Shown: piece after piece, positions 6,932-25,997 of the stretch
How the letters are laid out: every line of letters begins with the position of its first letter
Position numbering within the stretch: position 1 is the first letter of the stretch
Source of the DNA: Pseudobdellovibrionaceae bacterium
Lineage (GTDB): Bacteria; Bdellovibrionota; Bdellovibrionia; Bdellovibrionales; UBA1609
Assembly (NCBI GenBank): GCA_030591685.1
Contig: JAUVAX010000027.1
Span: 1 to 33,954 of the forward strand
Reading direction: 5' to 3'
Length of the DNA stretch: 33,954 nt
Made by a program: the position numbers and the translations under genes
The notes under the pieces: generated by a model
The model's database searches: none
Told to the model about the DNA's origin: nothing
Seen by the model: only the letters and a program-made list of their open reading frames with translations

Positions 6932-7020
6932 AAAAACCCCTTAAAAAAAATTACAATAGATCATTTCAGCCCTAATGTTAACGAGTTACTCTACTAATCT
7001 CTTAATTTAATAATGATTTT

Positions 7021-7172
7021 AGCCATTTGTTCTGTAGTGGGTTTAGCCCTTATAGCTTCACCTGGCTATGAGGGATTTAACTCGTCGTGTAAGAACTTTC
7101 AAACCCTCTAGTTTTTGAGGGTTTTGTAAAGCTCAATTAAAGCCCATCGTACAGTTCACAAAAGATGAGCCC
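7021..7172. ncRNA. Candidate structured RNA (long closing stem enclosing two hairpins) upstream of dnaE
   Basis: Hairpins at 7047-7074 and 7101-7124 are enclosed by pairings of 7027-7046 with 7137-7161. Family not identified. Confidence 0.3.
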
Positions 7173-7221
7173 ACAACCTTTAAAGTCTCCGTCCCCATTT
7201 TACTTTTTTTGTCACTTTTTT

Positions 7222-8256
7222 TTAAAATTTTAAAGCAAGCTTTCCAATACTATTTCCAGATTCAATAAGCTTATGCGCTTCAGCGACCTGCTCTATTGGG
7301 AAGGATTTTACCTTTGGGGGTATTAAATCCCCCTTTTTGATCAACTCAAGTAAGCCCTGCATATTTTGGGCAAGTAGCCTTTGTTCCTCAAATAAAAAAC
7401 TAACATTAAAACAAATTATACTTTTGTTTTCAGAAATCATTTTCATCGGATCAAATTTAGGTGTTTTAAGCAGTCCCCATATGGCTTTAAAATAATTAAG
7501 CTTGCCGCCTGATTTTGGAATCAGGCTATGGCTGCCATAAATTACAAGTTTTCCAGTAGGGCGAAGTAAATCAAAGGATGATTGAATTGTTGTGTATCCG
7601 TTAGCATCAAACACAGCATCAAAACCCAAAAGGTTATCTTTTTGTACCTGAGCCCAATTAAATTTGGGGTCAGATTTATCATAAACATGATCAGCCCCAA
7701 GGTCCAAAACATGTTGTATTTTTTGGCTGCGGCCAACGACACCAGAAACTTTATAACCTTTATCTTTTGCTAAACTCACTAATGCCGATCCCACTCCGCC
7801 GGCAGCTGAGTGCACAAGGATATTGGCATCAGGTGGAAGGTAAAAAATTTGAAGCATGCTGTAATAGGCCGTCATGTAAACGGCCGGAAAACAAGCACCT
7901 TGTTCCAGTGTGAATGATTCAGGTAGGGGCATTACTTGGCAGGCAGGTATTGAGATTTTACTTGAATAACCATTAAATCGAGTAAAAGCCATGACTTTAT
8001 CGCCAGCTTTAAAATTTGTAACACCTTCACCAACAGCTGTAACGGTACCGCTGACTTCAAACCCTGGTGTGATGGGCCATCCAACGTATTTTTTGGCCGA
8101 GGCATAGACGCCAATTCTAACTAAGCAATCAGCGTAGTTAATACCGGCGTAAGAGACGTCGATTAAAACCTCACCTTTAATTAAAGAGGGATCATTGCAT
8201 GTAACCAATTTTAACTTTTCGTATCCTCCAGCTGATTCAATGTAGATTTTTTGCAT
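7222..8256 (-). CDS. Zinc-independent MDR-family NADPH:quinone oxidoreductase (VAT-1-like)
   Basis: GINYAD, TPGFEVSG, HSAAGGVG nucleotide-binding motif and C-terminal GKLAL; no Zn-ligand cysteine cluster. Confidence 0.85.
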   Translation of the reverse strand: MQKIYIESAGGYEKLKLVTCNDPSLIKGEVLIDVSYAGINYADCLVRIGVYASAKKYVGWPITPGFEVSGTVTAVGEGVTNFKAGDKVMAFTRFNGYSSKISIPACQVMPLPESFTLEQGACFPAVYMTAYYSMLQIFYLPPDANILVHSAAGGVGSALVSLAKDKGYKVSGVVGRSQKIQHVLDLGADHVYDKSDPKFNWAQVQKDNLLGFDAVFDANGYTTIQSSFDLLRPTGKLVIYGSHSLIPKSGGKLNYFKAIWGLLKTPKFDPMKMISENKSIICFNVSFLFEEQRLLAQNMQGLLELIKKGDLIPPKVKSFPIEQVAEAHKLIESGNSIGKLALKF

Positions 8257-16326: not shown

Positions 16327-17430
16327 ATGAACATCCTACAAGTCGGTAAATACTCTCCATCTGCTTCTGGAGGTATCGAATCTGTTATTTACAAATTAAC
16401 AACCGGTCTTTGTAAAAAAAAATATACCTCTACAGTTATTTACTTTGAGTCAAAAAAGTATAAACCTATACGCCCTGAAGCCTATAACGCAATACATATC
16501 CCTGAAACTATAAATATCTTATCAAACCCTTATAATTTAAATTATCAAAAAAAATTATTACATCATATTAATAATGCTGACATCATACATCTGCACACAC
16601 CACATCCATTAGCCGAATATATTATTAGCAAATGTTCTTTTAAGGCTCCCCTAGTGACAACTATTCATGCTGATATAAATCGGTCCCCTTTAATTGAGAG
16701 CCTTTACCACAAGCTCAATTTGAAAATTTTAAATAAATCTAAAGCTATCACTGTAGCCTCACCCCATCATCTCAAATTTATTAAAAACCTCCGTGGGTTT
16801 GAGGCTAAAACCACTGTCATACCGTTTGGCACAGAGAGCTACCTATCCCCCCCTCAACCCCTCAAACATAGTGTTTGTTTTGTGGGTCGGCTGGTGAGCT
16901 ATAAAGGTCTTGAAACCCTAATAAAGGCTCAATTAAAGACCAATTGCCTTTTGCAAATTGTAGGCAGCGGCCCTGATGAAGGCCTGTTACGCAAGCTTGC
17001 CCTTCGCTTAGGGCTCAATCAAAGAATTCAATTTATGGGCAATCAAACCCCATTAGAAATAAAAAAAATACTCGCCCAGTCAAAAGCACTTGTATTGCCC
17101 TCAATAAATCAAAAAGAATGCTTTGGCATGGTCCTTATTGAAGCCCTCTCAGCAGGGGTCCCTGTTATAACCACACGGTTGGGCACTGGTGTTGACTTTG
17201 TAAATCAACACTTTAAAACTGGCATCACTACACCCATCAACCATCAAGACCGCCTTTCTGAAGCCATTAATTTAATCACTGAAAGCCCACAACTTAGAGA
17301 TGAGCTATCAAAGGGCGCATTAAAGCATTATGAAAACTCATTTACAAAAAAACAAATGATAGATAGTTTTGAAAAATTATATTTTGATTTATTTAATCCA
17401 TCGACAGAACATATAGTAAATAGCCTTTAG
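16327..17430 (+). CDS. Glycosyltransferase family 4
   Basis: GGIE, HLHTP, FVGRLVSYKG and ECFGMVLIEA (Ex7E). ATG 16327 lies 1 nt after the upstream stop. Confidence 0.9.
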   Translation: MNILQVGKYSPSASGGIESVIYKLTTGLCKKKYTSTVIYFESKKYKPIRPEAYNAIHIPETINILSNPYNLNYQKKLLHHINNADIIHLHTPHPLAEYIISKCSFKAPLVTTIHADINRSPLIESLYHKLNLKILNKSKAITVASPHHLKFIKNLRGFEAKTTVIPFGTESYLSPPQPLKHSVCFVGRLVSYKGLETLIKAQLKTNCLLQIVGSGPDEGLLRKLALRLGLNQRIQFMGNQTPLEIKKILAQSKALVLPSINQKECFGMVLIEALSAGVPVITTRLGTGVDFVNQHFKTGITTPINHQDRLSEAINLITESPQLRDELSKGALKHYENSFTKKQMIDSFEKLYFDLFNPSTEHIVNSL

Positions 17431-18315
17431 CTTTGAATCAAACAATAAAAACTTAATTACATAGTATTTTAATCGAGAGCTCCTTGGCCTTAGTAAGAAA
17501 TTTTTAGTCACAAACCAATTTAAACATAAATTATTTTGTTTGCTTTTAAATAAGTTGCATTTAAAACCTAATCTTTTAAATGCAATATCTATAGCGCAGA
17601 ATGAGTTTATTAATTTATTTTTTTTAAAAAGCACTAAAAGCTCTTTTTGTTTGATCTTAGAGCTGTATTTCTCAATAAACAAAGTGATGTCATAAAAATG
17701 CAATAAGTCCTCAAAGGTATTTAAAAACGACCAGTGTACACATAAGTAAAATAGCTCTAGTGTGGGGTCGAGCAATTTGTACTCCTGTGACTCGCTATCT
17801 ATAGTTAACCCTTGCCCCTTGGCCTCTATCCAAAAGGCCCTTGTATGAACCTCTAAATGTATTTCTAATAAATTCACATGAGCTTTGTAATCTGTTTTAA
17901 ATTCATCACCTAACCATCTTTTTTGATGCACTTGAGTAAAGCCAATACTCTTTAGCCCCGCTGTGAACTTTTGAAGTCCCTGGGGGGCGACGAGCAAATC
18001 AACATCAGACATTGGTCTAGCTCCGTAATTGGTATATACACCCCTAAGAAGCAAACTCACCCCTTTAAAGGGAAGCATGCTACCACTCCCCCCAATCACC
18101 TTATAAAGTGATTTATAAACCTCAAGTGAGGTCAAGTTAATAAGCCGATTAGAGGCCCAATGGGGTTTGAATTCATCTATAGAAAACAACTCAAACAAAA
18201 GACCTTGAAGCTTATGCTCAACAATTATTTGCCTATCTGATGAGTTTAACTGTGCCCCTCCAAGAGACGGCAACAGTTGCAGTAGGTTATTTTTAATATA
18301 ACTGATCTCTGGCAA
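17389..18315 (-). CDS. Nucleotidyltransferase (NTP_transf_5-like), lasso-cluster associated
   Basis: PFKG, RPMSDVDLLV (DxD), LEVH and LCVHW match this family's motif pattern. Confidence 0.8.
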   Translation of the reverse strand: MPEISYIKNNLLQLLPSLGGAQLNSSDRQIIVEHKLQGLLFELFSIDEFKPHWASNRLINLTSLEVYKSLYKVIGGSGSMLPFKGVSLLLRGVYTNYGARPMSDVDLLVAPQGLQKFTAGLKSIGFTQVHQKRWLGDEFKTDYKAHVNLLEIHLEVHTRAFWIEAKGQGLTIDSESQEYKLLDPTLELFYLCVHWSFLNTFEDLLHFYDITLFIEKYSSKIKQKELLVLFKKNKLINSFCAIDIAFKRLGFKCNLFKSKQNNLCLNWFVTKNFLLRPRSSRLKYYVIKFLLFDSKLKAIYYMFCRWIK

Positions 18316-18361
18316 AACTAATCCCTTGACGCTAACGCCGAAAACAATTGTACTTTTACTT

Positions 18362-19012
18362 ATGAACCATCATTTAGCAGTATCCATTGATAATCTATCA
18401 TGGTCGTATAAGGACTTAAAAGTATTATCTGCAATTCATTTACAAGTTTCTAGGGGTCAAACTATCTGTATCCACGGGCAAAATGGGTCGGGCAAAACGA
18501 CACTCTTAAAAATCATTTCAGGACTTTTAATACCTCAAAAAAAAAGTGTTGTTATAAATAACATTTGTACCCTTAAACACGGAAAAAAGGTAAGAAAACT
18601 AATTAGCTGGTCTCAAGCCAGCGACACTGGTTTTTTTAATTACCTCACTGGTTTTGAAAATTTAAAATGTTTTTACTTGTTATCTAATAACGATGAACAG
18701 TACTTTTTAAACGAACTTAAAAAAATGAAAGTTCACCCTATAGTTAATAAAACACTCAATTCCAAATATATTGATATGTCCACAGGCATGAAGCAAGTTT
18801 TAAGTTTTTTACGTGGGTATATCACCGAGCGGCCCCTTGTGTTGCTGGACGAACCTACCAGGTCCCTCTCTACCGAAATGCAAACATTAATTATTAAATG
18901 CATTAAAAACAAGGACCCTGGCAAGACCTTTATTATAGCCTCTCATAATGCTGAGCTCATCAACTCGTTTAAAAAATATACCCTTACAGATGGTCATCTA
19001 AAATGTTTATAA
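18362..19012 (+). CDS. ABC transporter ATP-binding subunit
   Basis: Walker A GQNGSGKTT, signature MSTGMKQ, Walker B LLDEPT and H-loop ASH. The ORF track starts at TTG 18326; ATG 18362 is more likely. Confidence 0.9.
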   Translation: MNHHLAVSIDNLSWSYKDLKVLSAIHLQVSRGQTICIHGQNGSGKTTLLKIISGLLIPQKKSVVINNICTLKHGKKVRKLISWSQASDTGFFNYLTGFENLKCFYLLSNNDEQYFLNELKKMKVHPIVNKTLNSKYIDMSTGMKQVLSFLRGYITERPLVLLDEPTRSLSTEMQTLIIKCIKNKDPGKTFIIASHNAELINSFKKYTLTDGHLKCL

Positions 19013-19812
19013 TACTTCGGCTACTGTTTAAAAATACATATAAGTATACGACGCCAACGCCATTAGTATATCTCAGTGATGTTTTTTCAATTGTGTTTAC
19101 ACTTATAATTTACAATTTAACGAGCAAGGCCCTAACCCCAAGCTTATCGGCTCACTACAACTGGCACTCACAGGATTACTTTACCTTTATTGTTATTGGA
19201 GAGCTCATATTAAGCGCTCCCATCTTATTTTTTGAGAGCCTCCCCAGGTCATTAAAAATGCATATATTCGATGGGAGTTTTACACACCTAATACTCAGCA
19301 AATCAGGCCCCGCAAAAGTGCTTATAATAAGTACTTTGAGCTTTCTCCCTAGAGAATTATTATCAACCTTTTTGTTATTTATGATCGCTAAAATCAGCTT
19401 TAACTTGAATGTTTCACCAAGTGATTTTGTGGCAATTATTATGTTACAGCTAGCTTTTCTGCCTAGCCTTCTTGCACTGAGTTTTATTATGAGTAGTCTT
19501 ATTTTATTAATGGGTCGAGGGTACGGGAGTGCTAGCCAGCTGGGCCTTGGGATGACTCTTTTAGCCGGGCAGTACTTCCCCATTGATGTATTGCCTGAAA
19601 CTATAAAAAAAATATCTGAACTACTATTGCCAACAACTGCGCTTATGCAAATTGGTCGTGAGCTTATCTCTGGAAGTTATGTTATTAATTTCATGCACAT
19701 AGGCACCATTTTACTATGGGCCCTCTTTTTATTACCACTTAGCATATATGTTTTTAACCAAACCTTAGAGTACAAACTAAAAAAAGGGTCTCACTTTACT
19801 TTTTATATTTAA
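19003..19812 (+). CDS. ABC-2-type transporter permease
   Basis: About 6 TM segments; GQYFPIDVLP...LLPTT...R motif; overlaps the ATPase gene. Confidence 0.85.
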   Translation: MFIILRLLFKNTYKYTTPTPLVYLSDVFSIVFTLIIYNLTSKALTPSLSAHYNWHSQDYFTFIVIGELILSAPILFFESLPRSLKMHIFDGSFTHLILSKSGPAKVLIISTLSFLPRELLSTFLLFMIAKISFNLNVSPSDFVAIIMLQLAFLPSLLALSFIMSSLILLMGRGYGSASQLGLGMTLLAGQYFPIDVLPETIKKISELLLPTTALMQIGRELISGSYVINFMHIGTILLWALFLLPLSIYVFNQTLEYKLKKGSHFTFYI

Positions 19813-19813
19813 A

Positions 19814-20917
19814 TTAATGAGATAGTTTTTTTAATAACTCTTTTGATAATGGTATTGAGTCAAAACTGCACTGATCCACTAATAACTCACCGTCTTTTAC
19901 AACCGACCATCTCCAAAGAGGAGAGTCAAAGGTCAGGTTTTGGTACATCCCGATTTTTACCTGTATTTGATCCCCTTGCTTTAAAGACAAGGTTTTATCA
20001 AAAGGTAAAAATATCTCCTGCCACAAATCATGATCTAATTCTAAAGGTGGTTTTGTGGATAAAAAGTTCTCTTTATCGTGTAAAAAACTATACCAACCCA
20101 TAAAACCTGTCATTACTGAGCTTCTGTTAATAGTAAAATTCATTTGCCACTCAAGATGATCCGACACTTTATCGGTTAAACATATCGGCTCACACGTATG
20201 ACCTTCAGCCATAGACTCTTTACCTGTAAACACAGAGTAAAGGGGGTGGTTAGCGGCCATTTCTCTAAGAGCACTAAAATCAAAACCAAATTTACTCGAT
20301 GACCAAAAATTAACCGTGTCCTCATAAAATGTTTTTACATCTACGGGAGTAAAATTTAACTGCAATTGATCCGGTATCACGCTCCCGCCGGGTTTTAAAA
20401 ATCTCATGGCAGCATCAGGCAAGCTCTCTATTGTTCCTAAAAACCCAATGTTTGTAACAATCACATCGACCTTTTCTGGCAATTCAACCTCTAAAGAGTC
20501 TCCGTATATAAATTCTATTTTTTCACTCATACCATTGTCTATGGCTACTTTTTTGGCCAGTTCAATAATTGGCTTAGCTTCAATGGCATACACCTTACTC
20601 GCCCCTAAGCGTACCGCATACATGGCATGAAGACCTGAGCCCGAGCCCAAATCTAAAACAACATCCCCTGGCTTAATGGCTCTTTGCATTTGAGTTAAAA
20701 AACTCTCCTGACAAAGGCGATCGCCCAATAAAACTCTATGTTCTTCAATTTCAGGGGCCGAAGTAATGCACATTTTTTTACTCGCCGGAAAGGCCCCACC
20801 ATCAGTTTTAGATCCCATACTAAAGGTCCGAGTAAATTCTTTAACTGATCCAAATTTAGTTAATTTTGGCTGAGCATAAGTTTTTTTAGTCTCTTTTTGC
20901 TTATCTTCAGAACTCAT
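19814..20917 (-). CDS. Lasso-peptide precursor fused to a PRMT-fold SAM-dependent methyltransferase
   Basis: Residues 14-29 YAQPKLTKFGSVKEFT match the lasso leader motif YxxPxLxxxGxxxxxT; core-like TFSMGSKTDGGAFP follows. From about residue 57: VLDLGSGSG, KVYAIE, ELPEKVDVIVT, FLKPGGSVIP, W..FGFDFS and a beta-barrel region. AGGGGA RBS before ATG 20917. Confidence 0.85.
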   Translation of the reverse strand: MSSEDKQKETKKTYAQPKLTKFGSVKEFTRTFSMGSKTDGGAFPASKKMCITSAPEIEEHRVLLGDRLCQESFLTQMQRAIKPGDVVLDLGSGSGLHAMYAVRLGASKVYAIEAKPIIELAKKVAIDNGMSEKIEFIYGDSLEVELPEKVDVIVTNIGFLGTIESLPDAAMRFLKPGGSVIPDQLQLNFTPVDVKTFYEDTVNFWSSSKFGFDFSALREMAANHPLYSVFTGKESMAEGHTCEPICLTDKVSDHLEWQMNFTINRSSVMTGFMGWYSFLHDKENFLSTKPPLELDHDLWQEIFLPFDKTLSLKQGDQIQVKIGMYQNLTFDSPLWRWSVVKDGELLVDQCSFDSIPLSKELLKKLSH

Positions 20918-20934: not shown

Positions 20935-22500
20935 TTACCTATTGATGATTTTTTCTGCGTAATAGAGTTTCAAAATTTGATCAATGTTTGTATTATTACC
21001 CAAATCCTTAAATAATTCATTAACACGTTGTTCATCGATGACGTTTCGCATTACAAAATGTCCCCTCATCAGTTTTACTTTTAACTCATCCCTCTTCATA
21101 GATATTTGCTCAGATCTAATTATAGAGTAGTCCTGCTGGCTACGATGCTCAATTATTGAGCTCGGCAATAGGGTCTTTGACGCCTCTCTTAATATACATT
21201 TATCTCTCCCTCTCCATGTAAACGACTCAACATTTAAACCCATACACCAATTAATAATATCCATATCCAACAAGGGGTAGCTCATAAGTTGACCATAACT
21301 CAAAGCCTGCTGCTGCTCCATAGCCATTGCAAACTGATAAAATCCTGAACTAAAAAACCGATTAAAAATTGTTTTTTGAACTGCATTTTTGTTAAATCTC
21401 TTTTGTAAACCTTTAAAGTTTTTAGAGCTCCCATTATTTTTTATATCCTTAATAAACTGTGGCACCACGCCCTTTGCTAAAAGAGTTATCAAATCAAAAG
21501 TCTTTAAATTTCTATTCTCTTTTTCAAAAAAAATATCTTTTACACGTCCCTGCTTTAACAAATCACTCAAAACATAATTGTCCATTGAAAATAAATCATC
21601 TCCCCCCAGTCCTGTTATAATGTACTTAATCCCATCAGTAGCGGCGCTTTCTAATAGCGGAGCAAAAAGGGTCAACGTGGGATCATAAAAAACACTTGAA
21701 TGAGGCTCTCTACTGATTTCAGCCCTAAGATCATCATATTCAAATACCTGATTATTGAGTTTACAAAAATCAATAACTTGTTTTAAGGCCCAATACTCAT
21801 CGGCCTCACTGTGCCCTGAAAACCTCAATGAATATGTCTTTAAAACTTTAGCTTCTCTTTGTATTAAAGAGGCTAGAAGGCTCGAATCAAAGCCACCACT
21901 TAACAGTAAACCAACATCAAAACCTTTGGCTCTGCGTAATATGGATTTTTGTAACAAACCTTGAAGCTCATTAGTCAATTCAGCTAACGACTTACCCCTA
22001 TGACATACCGGTGACAACCTGAGCGTCTCAATGAAGCCTTCACCACCTTCACTCACTCGAACAATTGTACCAGGAGGAGCTTTTTTAATGCCTTTATAGG
22101 GCGTTTTAGAAAGGCCAGAGAAGTCCTCATTGTATATTGAGAGTAAGTATTCAAAATCGTAATTTTCACCCTCTAAGAGCTCCTGCAAGTGACTACTTAC
22201 AATAACTCTATCTTTAAATACTTTATAAAAAAGTGGTACAACCCCAAGCGTGTCAGTAGATAAAAGTGTCTCATTTTTTAAGGGCAAACTTAATGCTAGA
22301 GCAAATTCACCTTTAAATTGTTGTACTATTTTCTCACCCTGAGCTTCACAAAGCAACAATACGTCACCTTCAGGGCTTCCTGTGGGCTGTAAATCAAAAA
22401 AACTTATGAGCTCAGAAAGGTTAAATATACGACCGGTGAGATGCACCAGACTAGAGCTAGCAAAGGGGCATTCAATCATGTCGCTAGCACTCATACTCAA
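20935..22500 (-). CDS. Lasso peptide cyclase (protein C; asparagine-synthetase-like)
   Basis: LSGGFDSS PP-loop, TGLGGDDLF, YPLLD and DKCILRE. The glutaminase domain is truncated and lacks the N-terminal catalytic Cys. Overlaps B2. Confidence 0.85.
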   Translation of the reverse strand: MSMSASDMIECPFASSSLVHLTGRIFNLSELISFFDLQPTGSPEGDVLLLCEAQGEKIVQQFKGEFALALSLPLKNETLLSTDTLGVVPLFYKVFKDRVIVSSHLQELLEGENYDFEYLLSIYNEDFSGLSKTPYKGIKKAPPGTIVRVSEGGEGFIETLRLSPVCHRGKSLAELTNELQGLLQKSILRRAKGFDVGLLLSGGFDSSLLASLIQREAKVLKTYSLRFSGHSEADEYWALKQVIDFCKLNNQVFEYDDLRAEISREPHSSVFYDPTLTLFAPLLESAATDGIKYIITGLGGDDLFSMDNYVLSDLLKQGRVKDIFFEKENRNLKTFDLITLLAKGVVPQFIKDIKNNGSSKNFKGLQKRFNKNAVQKTIFNRFFSSGFYQFAMAMEQQQALSYGQLMSYPLLDMDIINWCMGLNVESFTWRGRDKCILREASKTLLPSSIIEHRSQQDYSIIRSEQISMKRDELKVKLMRGHFVMRNVIDEQRVNELFKDLGNNTNIDQILKLYYAEKIINR

Positions 22501-22855
22501 AAAGAGTTTTATATTTTACGGATTCATCCATGTTATAAATTTTATTATTCAAAAACACCCACGCGTGAGCCCTAAAGAAGGGTTTGGGTTGTACTCCTAA
22601 GCAAAGCCTTGATCGACCCTTAATACCGCAAAAAATAACTAAACTTGAAACTAAACAGGCGCTTTGAAACCGTCTTGATATTTGTTGCGAGGTCTTTATG
22701 AAGAACTCTACATTTTCAGGGGATAACTTTATTGAAATAATTTTTTTAAGATTTTTTGAAAAAGAAAATAGCCGTTTAGGGCTATAAATATATAAAAGAA
22801 AAATAAAAGTAAAACTCAGAGCAGCAACATGGATTAAAATAAGCCCCTTCTTCAC
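22484..22855 (-). CDS. Lasso peptide leader peptidase B2 (transglutaminase-like)
   Basis: ACLVSS catalytic Cys, LGV and AHAWV catalytic His; lies between the RRE and cyclase genes. Confidence 0.85.
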   Translation of the reverse strand: MKKGLILIHVAALSFTFIFLLYIYSPKRLFSFSKNLKKIISIKLSPENVEFFIKTSQQISRRFQSACLVSSLVIFCGIKGRSRLCLGVQPKPFFRAHAWVFLNNKIYNMDESVKYKTLFEYEC

Positions 22856-23115
22856 TGAAGAAGTTCGTTATTTTTTAATTCCTCAATGAGGCGCTTTAAA
22901 TGAGCCTCAGCAGTCGTTGCTTCAACATCATAATTATCGCAAATAGTGTTAATAATTGTGAGTTGATCTGTATTAGACTCTATTAAAGTCCAAATATCAG
23001 TACCTACTGGGTCTAAACCAAAGTAAAAACCAGTTTTAAGGTTCAGTAAAATTTGCTCACCCTGAACCGTTTTTGACACGACATCTTTATTGATTTTTAA
23101 CTCAGTGATTTCCAT
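22852..23115 (-). CDS. Lasso peptide B1 / PqqD-family RiPP recognition element
   Basis: 87 aa: GEQILLNLKTGFYFGLDPVGTDIWTLI...YDVEATTAEAHLKRLIEELKNNELL is a classic RRE pattern. Confidence 0.92.
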   Translation of the reverse strand: MEITELKINKDVVSKTVQGEQILLNLKTGFYFGLDPVGTDIWTLIESNTDQLTIINTICDNYDVEATTAEAHLKRLIEELKNNELLQ

Positions 23116-23155: not shown

Positions 23156-24070
23156 TTACTTGATGCTGCGTGCAATGCGCTCCAAAGACTCCTGATTTTT
23201 TAAATAGCTCAATTTACACACAGGGACCTTAAGCAGAAAATCTGTAAGTTGGCTCAACTCATTTGCCGCCTTTTGACCTGAAACATCGATTCTATAAATA
23301 TTATCCAATATTTGTGGCCAAATAGATTGAGTCTCTTGGCTCATATTACTCGGATGACCGCATAAAGGTGGTCTTGAGTCTAATAAAAATACTTGCTTAA
23401 TTTTACTAGAGCTTAAAGCAAACATTTCTCCCACACTCAGCCTGACTTTCCCACAATGAGTGTTGGTGATTTTTTTTAAGTGACTCGTCACTTCACCATT
23501 ATCATTGAGTCGAATTTCTGAAAAACTTGACTGTGCCTCGTAGCCATCCAGTGAAGGACGCACCCAGACCGCATCATCCGAAATCAACATAAAGCCTTGA
23601 GTTACTAAGTAATGGGCAATTGTAGATTTACCACTACCAGAGGGGGCCACAAACACATAGGCCCTCCCCTTTTTATCGCACACAGCACTTGCGTGCAACA
23701 CAAGCTCTCCACTGAGCTGAAGCCATAACGGAATGACCTGGTTCATTAATAGACTCTCAACAGAAGCCAAAGGTGCATTCATATTTGAAATGATAATTTC
23801 TTTAAGATTCTTGTTTAAATAAAAATCGGCAATGTTTGGAATATGACAAATAAAAAAATCATTAGCCTCGCCGTACTCACACCACAATTGGTTGTCCTCT
23901 TCTATGTGATGGTACCAATTTATTTTTTCTGCAGTGAACTGTGAGTTTATGGAGATTTTTATATCAACATCTCCATCAAAGGCCGATTCAGAAGCATGTG
24001 GGAGCAAAAAATGAGACTCAATATTTAGACCAAAAGGCTTATAGAAAAATTTATTCACCTTTAAATCCAT
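23156..24070 (-). CDS. HPr-kinase-like peptide kinase (PadeK-type lasso kinase)
   Basis: LHASAV, Walker A APSGSGKST and LISDD. ATG 24070 overlaps the upstream amidotransferase (ORF track starts at 24091). Confidence 0.85.
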   Translation of the reverse strand: MDLKVNKFFYKPFGLNIESHFLLPHASESAFDGDVDIKISINSQFTAEKINWYHHIEEDNQLWCEYGEANDFFICHIPNIADFYLNKNLKEIIISNMNAPLASVESLLMNQVIPLWLQLSGELVLHASAVCDKKGRAYVFVAPSGSGKSTIAHYLVTQGFMLISDDAVWVRPSLDGYEAQSSFSEIRLNDNGEVTSHLKKITNTHCGKVRLSVGEMFALSSSKIKQVFLLDSRPPLCGHPSNMSQETQSIWPQILDNIYRIDVSGQKAANELSQLTDFLLKVPVCKLSYLKNQESLERIARSIK

Positions 24071-25997
24071 ATTTTCTGCGCCAACTCTCAAAGATTAAAA
24101 CATCCCATAATTTATACTGATAATTTGCCTTTTGAGATGAATGATCCAACCACTTGGAGCGAATAAGGTTCACATTAAATAGCCCTGAATCAGACAACGA
24201 GCTCTCGCTTAATAAATCCTCAGCCCAATCTCTGAGGTCACCTCTGAGCCAATCTTCGATAGGTACTCCAAAACCCTTTTTAGGGCGATCAATTAATTTT
24301 TGAGGCACATACTTGTTGAGTACTTGCCTTAAAAGCCATTTAGATTCGTTATCTCGTATTTTATACTTTTCCTCTAAGGGCCAAACGTGCTCAATGAGTC
24401 GACGGTCAAGCAAAGGGGCTCTTGATTCTAAGCTAGAGTACATGCTCGCTCGGTCCACTTTTACCATTATATCGTCTGGTAGATAGGTCATAGAGTCTAA
24501 ATACATCATTTCTTGAGTGAAACTCACGAATGAATGCCTCTGACTATCAAAGAGGGTTTTATTTAAAACGTCATCTACGCCAAGGACTACGCTCTCATTG
24601 TACCAATGACTTATTAAAGTTTCATACATTTCAAGAGGCTTATTTAGTTTTAAAAATTTTTCGATTTTATAAAGTTTCTGACCAAAATCATGTACTTGAT
24701 AAGCCTTCGGGAGCGTCCACTTAAAAGTTTGATACAAAGTGTCCCAAGTGTTTTCAGAAAATAGTTTAATTATAGTTGCGCCAAGGCCCCGACCTATCCC
24801 GGGCACAGAGCGCAACTGTCCCCATAGTTTATCAACCCAAAGGTATCGATTATAACCACCAAAAAGCTCATCCCCGCCATCACCTGATAAACTCACAGTC
24901 ACATGCTCTGAGGTCATTTGACTTAACAGTACTGTTGGGATCTGAGAGGAGTCCGAAAAGGGCTCATCATAAATTTCTGGTAAACGATCAACTATACCAA
25001 GGATTTGACTCGGGCTCACTATAAGCTCAGTATGGTCAGTCCCTAAATGTTCAGCGACGGCCCTTGCGTAATTAGACTCATCATATTGCTTTTGTTCAAA
25101 TCCAATTGTGAAGGTTTTTACTTTATCAGGGGAAACCTTTTTCATAATAGCAACAATTAAAGATGAATCTATGCCCCCTGATAAAAAGGCTCCTAAGGGG
25201 ACATCCGACACCATTTGGCTCTCAATAACTTCAGTGAGTTTATCCTCAAAGCCGTCAACTATCTGGCTATCCGAAAGATCACTTTCTATAGGGTGCAAAC
25301 TATCGCTAAGGCTCCAATAAGGCATTGGCACCATCTCAGTATTTGGAGAAGATAAGTCCACCTCTAAATATGTACCCGCTTGTAGCTTAAAAATATTTTT
25401 AAAAATACTTCTTGGGCCAGGGACATAATTATGCCGCAAAAACAGGCGCAAAGACTCTCTGTCAATTAAAGGGCTAAAATTTTTAATTGTAAAAAAAGCT
25501 TTAAGCTCTGACGCAAATAAAAACTCCCCATCAACCCAGCCATAATAAAGCGGCTTTTCTCCCATAGCGTCCCTTGAGAGAAACAAAGAGTTTAGCTCCG
25601 AATCCCATAGAGCAAAAGCAAACATACCCGTAATTTTAGTTAATGCCACTTTTAAACCATGAGCTTCAATGAGAGCTAATAAAACCTCCGTGTCAGAGTC
25701 ACCAGAAAAAGTATGACCTGACTTTAATACCTCTACTTTTAAAGCCCTATAATTATATATCTCCCCATTGTATACCAGCGTATAGCGCTTCGATTTAGAC
25801 TTCATTGGTTGAGCGGCATGGGTGCTTAGATCAATAATCGAGAGCCTATTATGAACAAAAGTTAGCCCAGTTTTATTGCTCCATATTCCCTGATCATTAG
25901 GGCCACGATGATTAAGTGCCTTTAAAAAGCACTGAGCGCGCCCTTCGCGGTCCTCGTCTGATAAATAATTGCTAAAAAAACCTGAGATCGCACACAT
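24051..25997 (-). CDS. Glutamine-hydrolysing asparagine-synthase-like amidotransferase (WbpS/AsnB type, likely sugar amidation)
   Basis: N-terminal MC Ntn nucleophile, HRGPND, NGEIYN, FLSGGIDSS, SGDGGDELF and KVDRASM; polysaccharide context. Confidence 0.9.
   Translation of the reverse strand: MCAISGFFSNYLSDEDREGRAQCFLKALNHRGPNDQGIWSNKTGLTFVHNRLSIIDLSTHAAQPMKSKSKRYTLVYNGEIYNYRALKVEVLKSGHTFSGDSDTEVLLALIEAHGLKVALTKITGMFAFALWDSELNSLFLSRDAMGEKPLYYGWVDGEFLFASELKAFFTIKNFSPLIDRESLRLFLRHNYVPGPRSIFKNIFKLQAGTYLEVDLSSPNTEMVPMPYWSLSDSLHPIESDLSDSQIVDGFEDKLTEVIESQMVSDVPLGAFLSGGIDSSLIVAIMKKVSPDKVKTFTIGFEQKQYDESNYARAVAEHLGTDHTELIVSPSQILGIVDRLPEIYDEPFSDSSQIPTVLLSQMTSEHVTVSLSGDGGDELFGGYNRYLWVDKLWGQLRSVPGIGRGLGATIIKLFSENTWDTLYQTFKWTLPKAYQVHDFGQKLYKIEKFLKLNKPLEMYETLISHWYNESVVLGVDDVLNKTLFDSQRHSFVSFTQEMMYLDSMTYLPDDIMVKVDRASMYSSLESRAPLLDRRLIEHVWPLEEKYKIRDNESKWLLRQVLNKYVPQKLIDRPKKGFGVPIEDWLRGDLRDWAEDLLSESSLSDSGLFNVNLIRSKWLDHSSQKANYQYKLWDVLIFESWRRKYGFKGE

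Follow-up and report, generated by a model that had tools for sequence, protein, structure and literature searches.

In a 33,954-nucleotide (nt) stretch of DNA from a Pseudobdellovibrionaceae bacterium (contig JAUVAX010000027.1 of GenBank assembly GCA_030591685.1; the whole stretch is hereafter called the window), the reverse-strand gene at 19814..20917 encodes a lasso peptide leader and core that continue in frame into an S-adenosylmethionine (SAM) methyltransferase with the fold of protein arginine methyltransferases (PRMTs). We consider it probable, at roughly 60%, that this gene is a genuine lasso precursor fused by stop-codon loss to the methyltransferase, and that its product would be a self-tethered precursor-tailoring enzyme worked on by the lasso machinery encoded beside it. 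The host bacterium is probably predatory (Bdellovibrio-like).

A lasso leader and core continue in frame into a methyltransferase

The fused gene and its parts, all on the reverse strand, are as follows.

19814..20917, − strand: fused gene, 367 amino acids (aa), ATG start; lasso leader, core and PRMT-fold SAM methyltransferase, assigned from the list of open reading frames (ORFs), Pfam and homologues
20828..20917, − strand: leader, residues 1–30, MSSEDKQKETKKTYAQPKLTKFGSVKEFTR, assigned from the sequence and from column counts in 40 homologues
20765..20827, − strand: core, residues 31–51, TFSMGSKTDGGAFPASKKMCI, Gly/Ser-rich, assigned from homologue columns and a precursor hidden Markov model (HMM)
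19814..20764, − strand: methyltransferase domain, residues 52–367 plus stop; class I SAM fold and PRMT beta-barrel, double-E loop remodelled

The gene lies directly downstream of the lasso cyclase gene, as the initial annotation of this DNA had stated, with a gap of 17 nt, and AAGGGG sits 7 nt upstream of its ATG. The leader residues named in that annotation were all found at the positions given for them; with a putative cut after R30 they are Y14 (−17), P17 (−14), L19 (−12), G23 (−8) and T29 (−2). Cleavage by the leader peptidase B2 would thus fall after R30, at the canonical distance of two residues past Thr. The strict motif Y..P.[LIVM]...G.....T occurs only once in the six frames of the window. 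Translation also bore out the Gly/Ser-rich core with an Asp (D39), which runs into the methyltransferase with no intervening stop codon. The usual form of a lasso precursor, a free-standing peptide of ~40–60 residues, is accordingly absent: the product has 367 aa and no stop follows the core. We propose that T31–D39 would form a nine-residue macrolactam, in which S33 and D39 occupy core positions 3 and 9. The expected resemblance of residues 1–48 to lasso leader models held in part, in that the NCBIfam model lasso_cyano (NF033528) matched residues 11–39 with an E-value of 2.6e-6 but reached 27.3 bits, below its curated cut-off of 33.

An AlphaFold2 (AF2) model of the fused protein, built with 40 sequences, had a mean predicted local distance difference test score (pLDDT) of 87.1 and a predicted template modelling score (pTM) of 0.80. 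The pLDDT fell below 50 at residues 1–7 and 28–50, and the block means exceeded 90 in most blocks past residue 60, suggesting a confidently predicted enzyme fold that carries a disordered peptide tail.

The fusion is conserved in a deep clade

The same fusion was found in homologues, which are therefore not always split: 40 of the 46 best database matches are full-length fused proteins of 351–400 aa, and the fused clade reaches down to 35% identity. Among the 40, P17, G23, D39 and C50 are each kept without exception, Y14 is present in 36, and position 19 is L, V or I in all. Core position 3 (residue 33) is Ser in 26, Thr in 12 and Cys in 2. The remaining six best matches are short records. One of them, P0023 (318 aa), is a gene call from an internal Met; the protein clustered with it, P0124, is fused and 363 aa long, and comes from a Bdellovibrionaceae metagenome-assembled genome; another, P0024, begins inside the core. 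A search of 1.84 billion library representatives gave 15 matches, among its best 150, that align from profile position 12 or earlier, and in 12 of these 15 a regular expression found the leader, eight residues, an Asp and then Cys-[ILV]; P0125, among the matches so aligned, is the protein of genome G035 itself. One fused member carries the name ribosomal protein L11 methyltransferase.

P0127 (977 aa), from the representative library, holds the cyclase, leader and core, and methyltransferase all in one frame, with the fused unit at residues 597–962. It is the sole such case encountered, and may be either a true triple fusion or the result of a stop lost in assembly.

An indel at the junction was looked for and none was seen: a Logan contig from run X1 covers 20231–20864 with 0 differences and 0 gaps, while 19794–20216 of the window lies outside Logan contig cover. 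As this contig probably derives from the same sample, it lacks independence and adds little. The RNA run X3 gave no match on this stretch. Independent support for an intact junction is instead provided, at the sequence level, by the 40 full-length fused homologues, which come from other assemblies.

Eight loci with the fused gene were compared: the window, one metagenome contig, and loci in genomes G035, G329, G239, G398, G309 and G289. The searches that yielded the six genomes covered two overlapping sets, of 61 and 401 genomes, and all six are of the same order as the window's genome. In metagenome contigs, a degenerate DNA pattern for PEKVDV..[TS]N.GF found a single contig, L093; with the smaller alignment A4, 304 pattern matches in metagenome contigs yielded 0 confirmed cases.

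The fused N-terminus is the only precursor found

The initial annotation held that there is no separate short precursor, and this was upheld by both motif and HMM searches in the window, the seven other loci and the whole genome. The precursor HMM was built from 25 stand-alone precursors of other genomes, five regular-expression hits having been dropped as chance frames; it is partly circular because its input sequences were picked with the leader regular expression. Across 3,230 frames of the eight fused loci it found only the fused N-termini, with E-values of 1.5e-10 to 1.2e-5 (next best 0.22), and no other ORF with the leader motif was present in any of these loci. On the fused gene of the window it gave an E-value of 7.2e-10, with the alignment spanning residues 10–51 and ending at I51. 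The whole genome (98 contigs, 100% complete by markers) has 70,881 frames, and the HMM found only this N-terminus among them (E-value 1.6e-8; next best 0.28). The genome-wide runner-up, C52:10712-10861 (E-value 0.28), was rejected as a precursor, having no Gly and no Met ahead of the motif. The genome holds a single set of the cyclase (C), B1, B2 and kinase (K) genes. A search for short relatives of residues 1–56, sensitive only to shared five-residue words, found none.

Non-fused relatives point to the origin of the fusion

A scan of genome contigs with a full-length alignment revealed at least 80 non-fused relatives of the methyltransferase with readable flanks, and no fused locus was among the matches listed. 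Of the genes C, B1, B2 and K, 26 of the 80 relatives listed have at least two beside them, 4 have one and 50 have none. The non-fused lasso clusters (loci L001–L073) come from Acidobacteriota, Nitrospirota, Rokubacteria and others, and encode ordinary stand-alone precursors, 9 of 25 of which end in Cys-Leu, often after a Met-rich stretch. In seven loci the stand-alone precursor lies just upstream of the methyltransferase on the same strand. In the Nitrospira locus L014, the precursor ends in '...GMGMCL' and one stop codon, after which the methyltransferase follows in the same frame; in locus L002, two stops separate the two genes. The Cys-Leu ends, the single stop of L014 and the HMM alignment ending at I51 together indicate that C50-I51 represents a former precursor C-terminus and that the fusion is a stop-codon loss. 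From these sequences, the fused gene appears to descend from an ancestral precursor-then-methyltransferase gene pair.

In an unrooted tree of 114 rows, computed from the methyltransferase-domain columns only, the fused rows formed one side of a branch (39/39) with a Shimodaira–Hasegawa-like approximate likelihood-ratio test (SH-aLRT) value of 100. Omitted were P0032, which gave no motif match, four rows with long branches and one with many gaps.

The stand-alone precursors with Met-rich tails and Cys-Leu ends, such as ...MMMMCL and ...GMGMRMGMGMRCL, come from Acidobacteriota, Nitrospirota and Rokubacteria and are found in loci L002, L003, L005, L006, L009, L014, L016, L023 and L069. Their Met-rich tails are reminiscent of Cu(I)-binding Met motifs.

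The methyltransferase domain is remodelled

Assignment of the enzyme part to the PRMT and methyltransferase families was borne out by Pfam, in which PrmA matched residues 74–181 (E-value 2.7e-14) and PRMT_C residues 190–327 (E-value 3.5e-11). The family profile matched PRMT3 (2fyt_A) over profile positions 63–335 with an E-value of 1e-51, and the structures of PRMT3, PRMT1, PRMT8 and CARM1 gave E-values of 1e-51 to 1e-42, in each case from position ~60 on.

The active site departs from that of an arginine methyltransferase. Where the double-E loop of PRMTs has its first Glu, Asn (N156) stands in 39 of 40 fused homologues; the second Glu falls in a four-residue deletion in the fused clade, and position 164 is Glu in only 3 of 40. 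The THW-loop His is replaced, with I, L or V at position 298 in 40/40 and W299 kept (the THW mapping was read by eye). The core has no conserved Arg among the 40 fused homologues. The missing double-E loop and the lack of a conserved Arg in the core led us to reject the reading as an arginine methyltransferase, and judged from these sequences arginine is unlikely to be the methyl acceptor.

Five positions, Q70, H97, N156, Y276 and P291, separate the fused rows from 75 non-fused rows, in which position 156 is Glu in 46, Asp in 25 and Val in 4. The non-fused lasso-associated enzymes are ~380–400 aa long and bear an extra C-terminal three-helix tail of ~70 residues, which the fused clade does not have; in P0051 the tail helices span residues 329–339, 347–357 and 365–379, with a pLDDT of 91.5. 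Three non-fused proteins, P0133, P0134 and P0136, have His at position 97 and a shortened double-E loop, and by sequence look like intermediates between the free and fused forms. P0136, which bears the tail, has H97, N156 and the double-E deletion, so these features are not strictly tied to fusion.

The fused gene lies in a conserved lasso cluster

The genes around the fused gene are listed below.

17389..18315, − strand: PF14907 nucleotidyltransferase in a BsfN/PsmN-type position; Pfam NTP_transf_5, E-value 1.2e-18
18326..19812, + strand: ATP-binding cassette (ABC) exporter pair, convergent with the fused gene; ATPase 18326–19012, ABC-2 permease 19003–19812
20935..22500, − strand: lasso cyclase C, 521 aa, an Asn-synthetase homologue; Pfam Asn_synthase, E-value 5.5e-25
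22484..22855, − strand: leader peptidase B2, 123 aa, transglutaminase-like; NCBIfam lasso_biosyn_B2, 36.1 bits (cut-off 33), and Pfam Transglut_core3
22852..23115, − strand: B1, PqqD-type leader-recognition protein (RiPP recognition element, RRE; RiPP, ribosomally made and post-translationally modified peptide), 87 aa; Pfam PqqD, E-value 8.5e-15
23156..24091, − strand: HprK-like peptide kinase, 311 aa; NCBIfam HprK_rel_A, E-value 1.6e-9, under its cut-off

Cyclase C has an SGGFDSS PP-loop and no N-terminal Cys, and matched NCBIfam lass_lactam_cya with an E-value of 9.6e-26, under the model's cut-off. B1 likewise matched lasso_PqqD_Bac under its cut-off (E-value 3.2e-15). The kinase motif H...GSGKS...DD is present, as read by eye. 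Within the ABC pair, Pfam ABC_tran matched with an E-value of 1.9e-24 and ABC2_membrane with 9.8e-6, just under its cut-off. The intergenic gaps of at most 40 bp described in the initial annotation agree with those measured: besides the 17 nt between the cyclase and the fused gene, 40 nt separate the kinase from B1, and the B1/B2 and B2/C pairs overlap.

This arrangement recurs in all eight loci. The fused gene has the cyclase directly upstream in 8/8; B1 and the kinase are present in 8/8, as are B2-like and PF14907 genes, several of the B2s scoring under curated thresholds. In G035, the fused-type cluster of locus L091 further contains, at 6980-7891 on the − strand, a protein that joins a PqqD domain to a 2OG-Fe(II) oxygenase (Pfam E-values 6.5e-7 and 2.1e-10, respectively). 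Judged by its domains, this protein would be a second tailoring enzyme that reads the same leader.

The lasso cluster is embedded in an exopolysaccharide/capsule locus that occupies 11239–33525 of the window, and the same holds for L091, L093 and L102. The polysaccharide genes encode a low-molecular-weight phosphotyrosine phosphatase, a UDP-glucose dehydrogenase, an epimerase, WecA-like and GT4 glycosyltransferases, a MurJ-like flippase, a chain-length/tyrosine-kinase protein and an SLBB export protein. In 4/8 loci the cluster has a homologue of the tyrosine-kinase protein at its flank, and in 3/8 one of the SLBB protein. A second Asn-synthetase homologue, with an N-terminal Cys, is encoded at 24051-25997 on the − strand; it matched NCBIfam asn_synth_AEB above its cut-off and the XrtA/PEP-CTERM amidotransferase model at 526 bits, under its cut-off. 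Its ORF overlaps that of the kinase by 41 nt, and a 45%-identical copy adjoins the kinase in L101. We consider that it probably belongs to the polysaccharide genes rather than to the lasso pathway.

A proposed pathway and its alternatives

In the pathway that we propose, B1 would bind the disordered N-terminal tail through the leader, and the HprK-like kinase would phosphorylate Ser3 of the core (S33). The tethered methyltransferase domain would then methylate a site within residues 31–51, in cis or across a dimer; as acceptors we favour, as a guess, the invariant C50 or the phosphate of phosphoserine S33. B2 would cut after T29-R30, and the cyclase would join the amine of T31 to the side chain of D39, closing a nine-residue ring around the tail. 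The resulting lasso of ~21 residues might be freed by non-dedicated proteolysis of the linker or enzyme, and exported by the ABC pair, much as in borosins, in which each enzyme domain serves once. Tethering possibly replaced the C-terminal tail of the non-fused relatives, which in that case would have served to bind the leader.

Leader binding by B1 was modelled. The predicted complex of B1 with residues 1–52 had an interaction prediction score from aligned errors (ipSAE) of 0.54, compared with 0.15 for the best control; the runs agreed in at least 84% of contacts and the partner pLDDT was at least 54. Of 157 solved complexes 116 reached the ipSAE mark, as did 2 of 215 mismatched pairs, and only 18 of the 157 solved complexes, together with both of the mismatches that passed, reached it at 0.60 or below. 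B1–leader complexes of a similar kind have solved structures, so the pass may derive from structures already familiar to the predictor. The predicted complex is a weak pass of the mark and lends weak support to binding of the leader by B1.

That weak pass weighs against the proposed pathway, and so do several other observations. T29 is not invariant, position 29 being Thr in 33, Ser in 5 and Ala in 2 of the 40 fused homologues. The commoner first residue of a lasso core is Gly; here it is Thr or Ala in 35/40. The lasso_cyano match falls short of its cut-off, as described above, and this model is absent from the 25 NCBIfam families matched by most of the 40 fused members. AF2 docks the tail nowhere on the fused protein, giving no hint of the methyl acceptor. 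As to the lost tail, whose reading as an RRE is weak, hhalign comparison of long non-fused methyltransferases with B1 proteins gave no tail match (probability 1.5%); Pfam found no PqqD on the whole non-fused enzymes, and on ten isolated tails PqqD was faint in three (E-values 0.037–0.075) and gave no match in seven. No recurrent protease besides B2 is conserved across the eight loci, which leaves peptide release unsupported, and BLAST detected the ABC pair in only 4/8. Finally, a start at the internal M49 could also yield free enzyme.

The last of these points leads to a competing explanation, that the fusion is an illusion of annotation or assembly, through a sequencing error at the junction, or that the one frame yields two products by means of M49; precursor and enzyme would then be made separately and the fused polypeptide would not matter. 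A weak Shine-Dalgarno-like GGCGAG does precede M49, and one gene caller did call P0023 from an internal Met. However, Met is found at position 49 in only 23/40 fused homologues, and since no stop follows I51, any ribosome that initiates at M1 must produce the fused protein. The frame stays open throughout 40 independent assemblies and all eight loci, and the Logan contig spans the junction unchanged. The assembly-error part is close to refuted; we regard this explanation as a whole as very improbable. We also doubt strongly, though somewhat less so, that the N-terminus is a leader-like docking tag, never cyclised, that recruits the methyltransferase to the B1/lasso complex or titrates it, the target being elsewhere, such as a polysaccharide component. 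The exopolysaccharide setting of the cluster and the weakness of the predicted B1–leader complex would suit such a tag. Against it, a tag has to be reconciled with conservation that goes beyond the leader (D39 in 40, Ser or Thr at the third core position in 38, and the Cys of the former C-terminus in 40 of 40 homologues), with a genome that has a full C/B1/B2/K set and no other precursor, and with non-fused relatives that pair with real stand-alone precursors.

A more serious contender, though still an unlikely one in our estimation, accepts the lasso but not its release. B2 and C would process the N-terminus with no cut after I51, leaving a methyltransferase of ~337 residues with a threaded or branched N-terminal macrolactam; the folded domain would be a permanent stopper, and the lasso a stabilising cap, an active-site regulator or a targeting device. 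The lack of a conserved protease other than B2 agrees with this, as do the loci in which the ABC pair was not found as read (4/8) and the retention of the fusion across a deep clade, down to 35% identity. C-terminal appended proteins are tolerated by lasso enzymes, according to the accessible part of a review (PMC13352647). The active site differs from that of most non-fused relatives at Q70, H97, N156 and Y276, a remodelling that could point to a new role; however, H97, N156 and the deletion also occur in the non-fused, tail-bearing P0136. In four loci, moreover, an ABC-2 type exporter adjoins the gene, and the core is homologous to stand-alone precursors and ends exactly as they do, at Cys-[ILV], which suggests the same small product. 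Because of this homology to free precursors and the presence of the ABC pair, we prefer, only slightly, release of the lasso peptide from the self-tethered enzyme over a lasso that stays on the protein.

Significance and comparison with known systems

With lasso precursors regarded as free peptides, short ORFs are what genome-mining tools seek, so a clade whose precursor lies inside a 360-residue "methyltransferase" would be missed or mis-annotated. We found no natural lasso precursor–enzyme fusion in searches of the open full-text literature, a body that excludes supplements and subscription papers; surveys of the RODEO era in particular might hold a remark. In the accessible portion of a 2024 review of RiPP methyltransferases, the only lasso entries are LasF and LopH, and fusion is described only for borosins (PMC11285071). 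In that of a 2026 review of interlocked peptides, the word 'fused' is absent and only engineered fusions are mentioned (PMC13352647).

If our reading is right, the fused proteins would to our knowledge join borosins as the second RiPP class with a substrate tethered to a methyltransferase of its own, and tethering would have arisen independently of borosins, on another fold and with opposite polarity. The fused enzymes, having no C-terminal tail of the kind borne by their free relatives, would serve as a natural experiment on the role of leader-recognition domains, and would offer a compact one-gene handle on the chemistry of widespread kinase-bearing lasso clusters with PRMT-fold methyltransferases. 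They would also be a natural counterpart of the astexin-1 engineering, in which a lasso was matured with a protein on its tail. Should the lasso instead remain on the protein, the methyltransferase domain would act as permanent stopper in a genetically encoded [1]rotaxane, and the knot would gate, stabilise or target the enzyme. No natural protein produced by RiPP enzymes is known to have such a post-translational topology.

The closest known systems are compared here in turn. The non-fused PRMT-fold lasso clusters share with the window a homologous methyltransferase (27–40% identity, tblastn), the kinase, B1 and the cyclase, and their precursors are homologous to the fused N-terminus, but precursor and enzyme are separate genes. 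Eukaryotic type I PRMTs (PRMT3, PRMT1, PRMT8 and CARM1) have the same SAM-binding Rossmann domain and beta-barrel, whereas here the double-E and the THW His are lost and the core is without a conserved Arg.

The borosin methyltransferase has a fold other than the PRMT-like class I fold, and no borosin/OphMA chain was among the 60 PDB matches listed of 98. The likeness to borosins drawn in the initial annotation stands for the logic of a tethered precursor and methyltransferase, and not for the fold or the polarity. In the published account, as far as it is accessible, borosins of types I–III (OphMA) likewise have the precursor fused to its own SAM methyltransferase, the tethered core being modified and the enzyme then discarded; they differ in a C-terminal rather than N-terminal core, in backbone N-methylation and in having no lasso machinery (PMC11285071). 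Engineered fusions of astexin-1 and pandonodin, as described in the portion of the source consulted, show that a lasso core with a folded protein on its C-terminus is still matured (PMC13352647). Those fusions are artificial; the one described here occurs naturally, and its appended protein would be a tailoring enzyme of the same pathway.

The phospho-acceptor of paeninodin is a C-terminal Ser. In the available descriptions, lasso clusters of the bsf and of the paeninodin/pseudomycoidin type share several genes with the cluster described here, namely split B1/B2 and the cyclase, an ABC exporter, the HprK-like kinase and the PF14907 nucleotidyltransferase. The bsf cluster of Bradymonas sediminis comprises BsfA/B1/B2/C/D/K/N, and BsfK phosphorylates Ser3 of the core, strictly the third residue, aided by B1, according to the part of that report at hand (PMC10368454). 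The leader offsets found here equal those of BsfA (Tyr-17 and Pro-14 together with Leu-12), and the Ser/Thr at core position 3 in 38/40 fused homologues fits the BsfK rule (PMC10368454) and would mark a phosphorylation site; compared by eye with the bsf kinase motif, the first Gly is Ala here. The bsf precursor is a free peptide and no methyltransferase is listed among the bsf genes in the same portion of the source, whereas in the window the precursor forms the N-terminus of a 316-residue methyltransferase.

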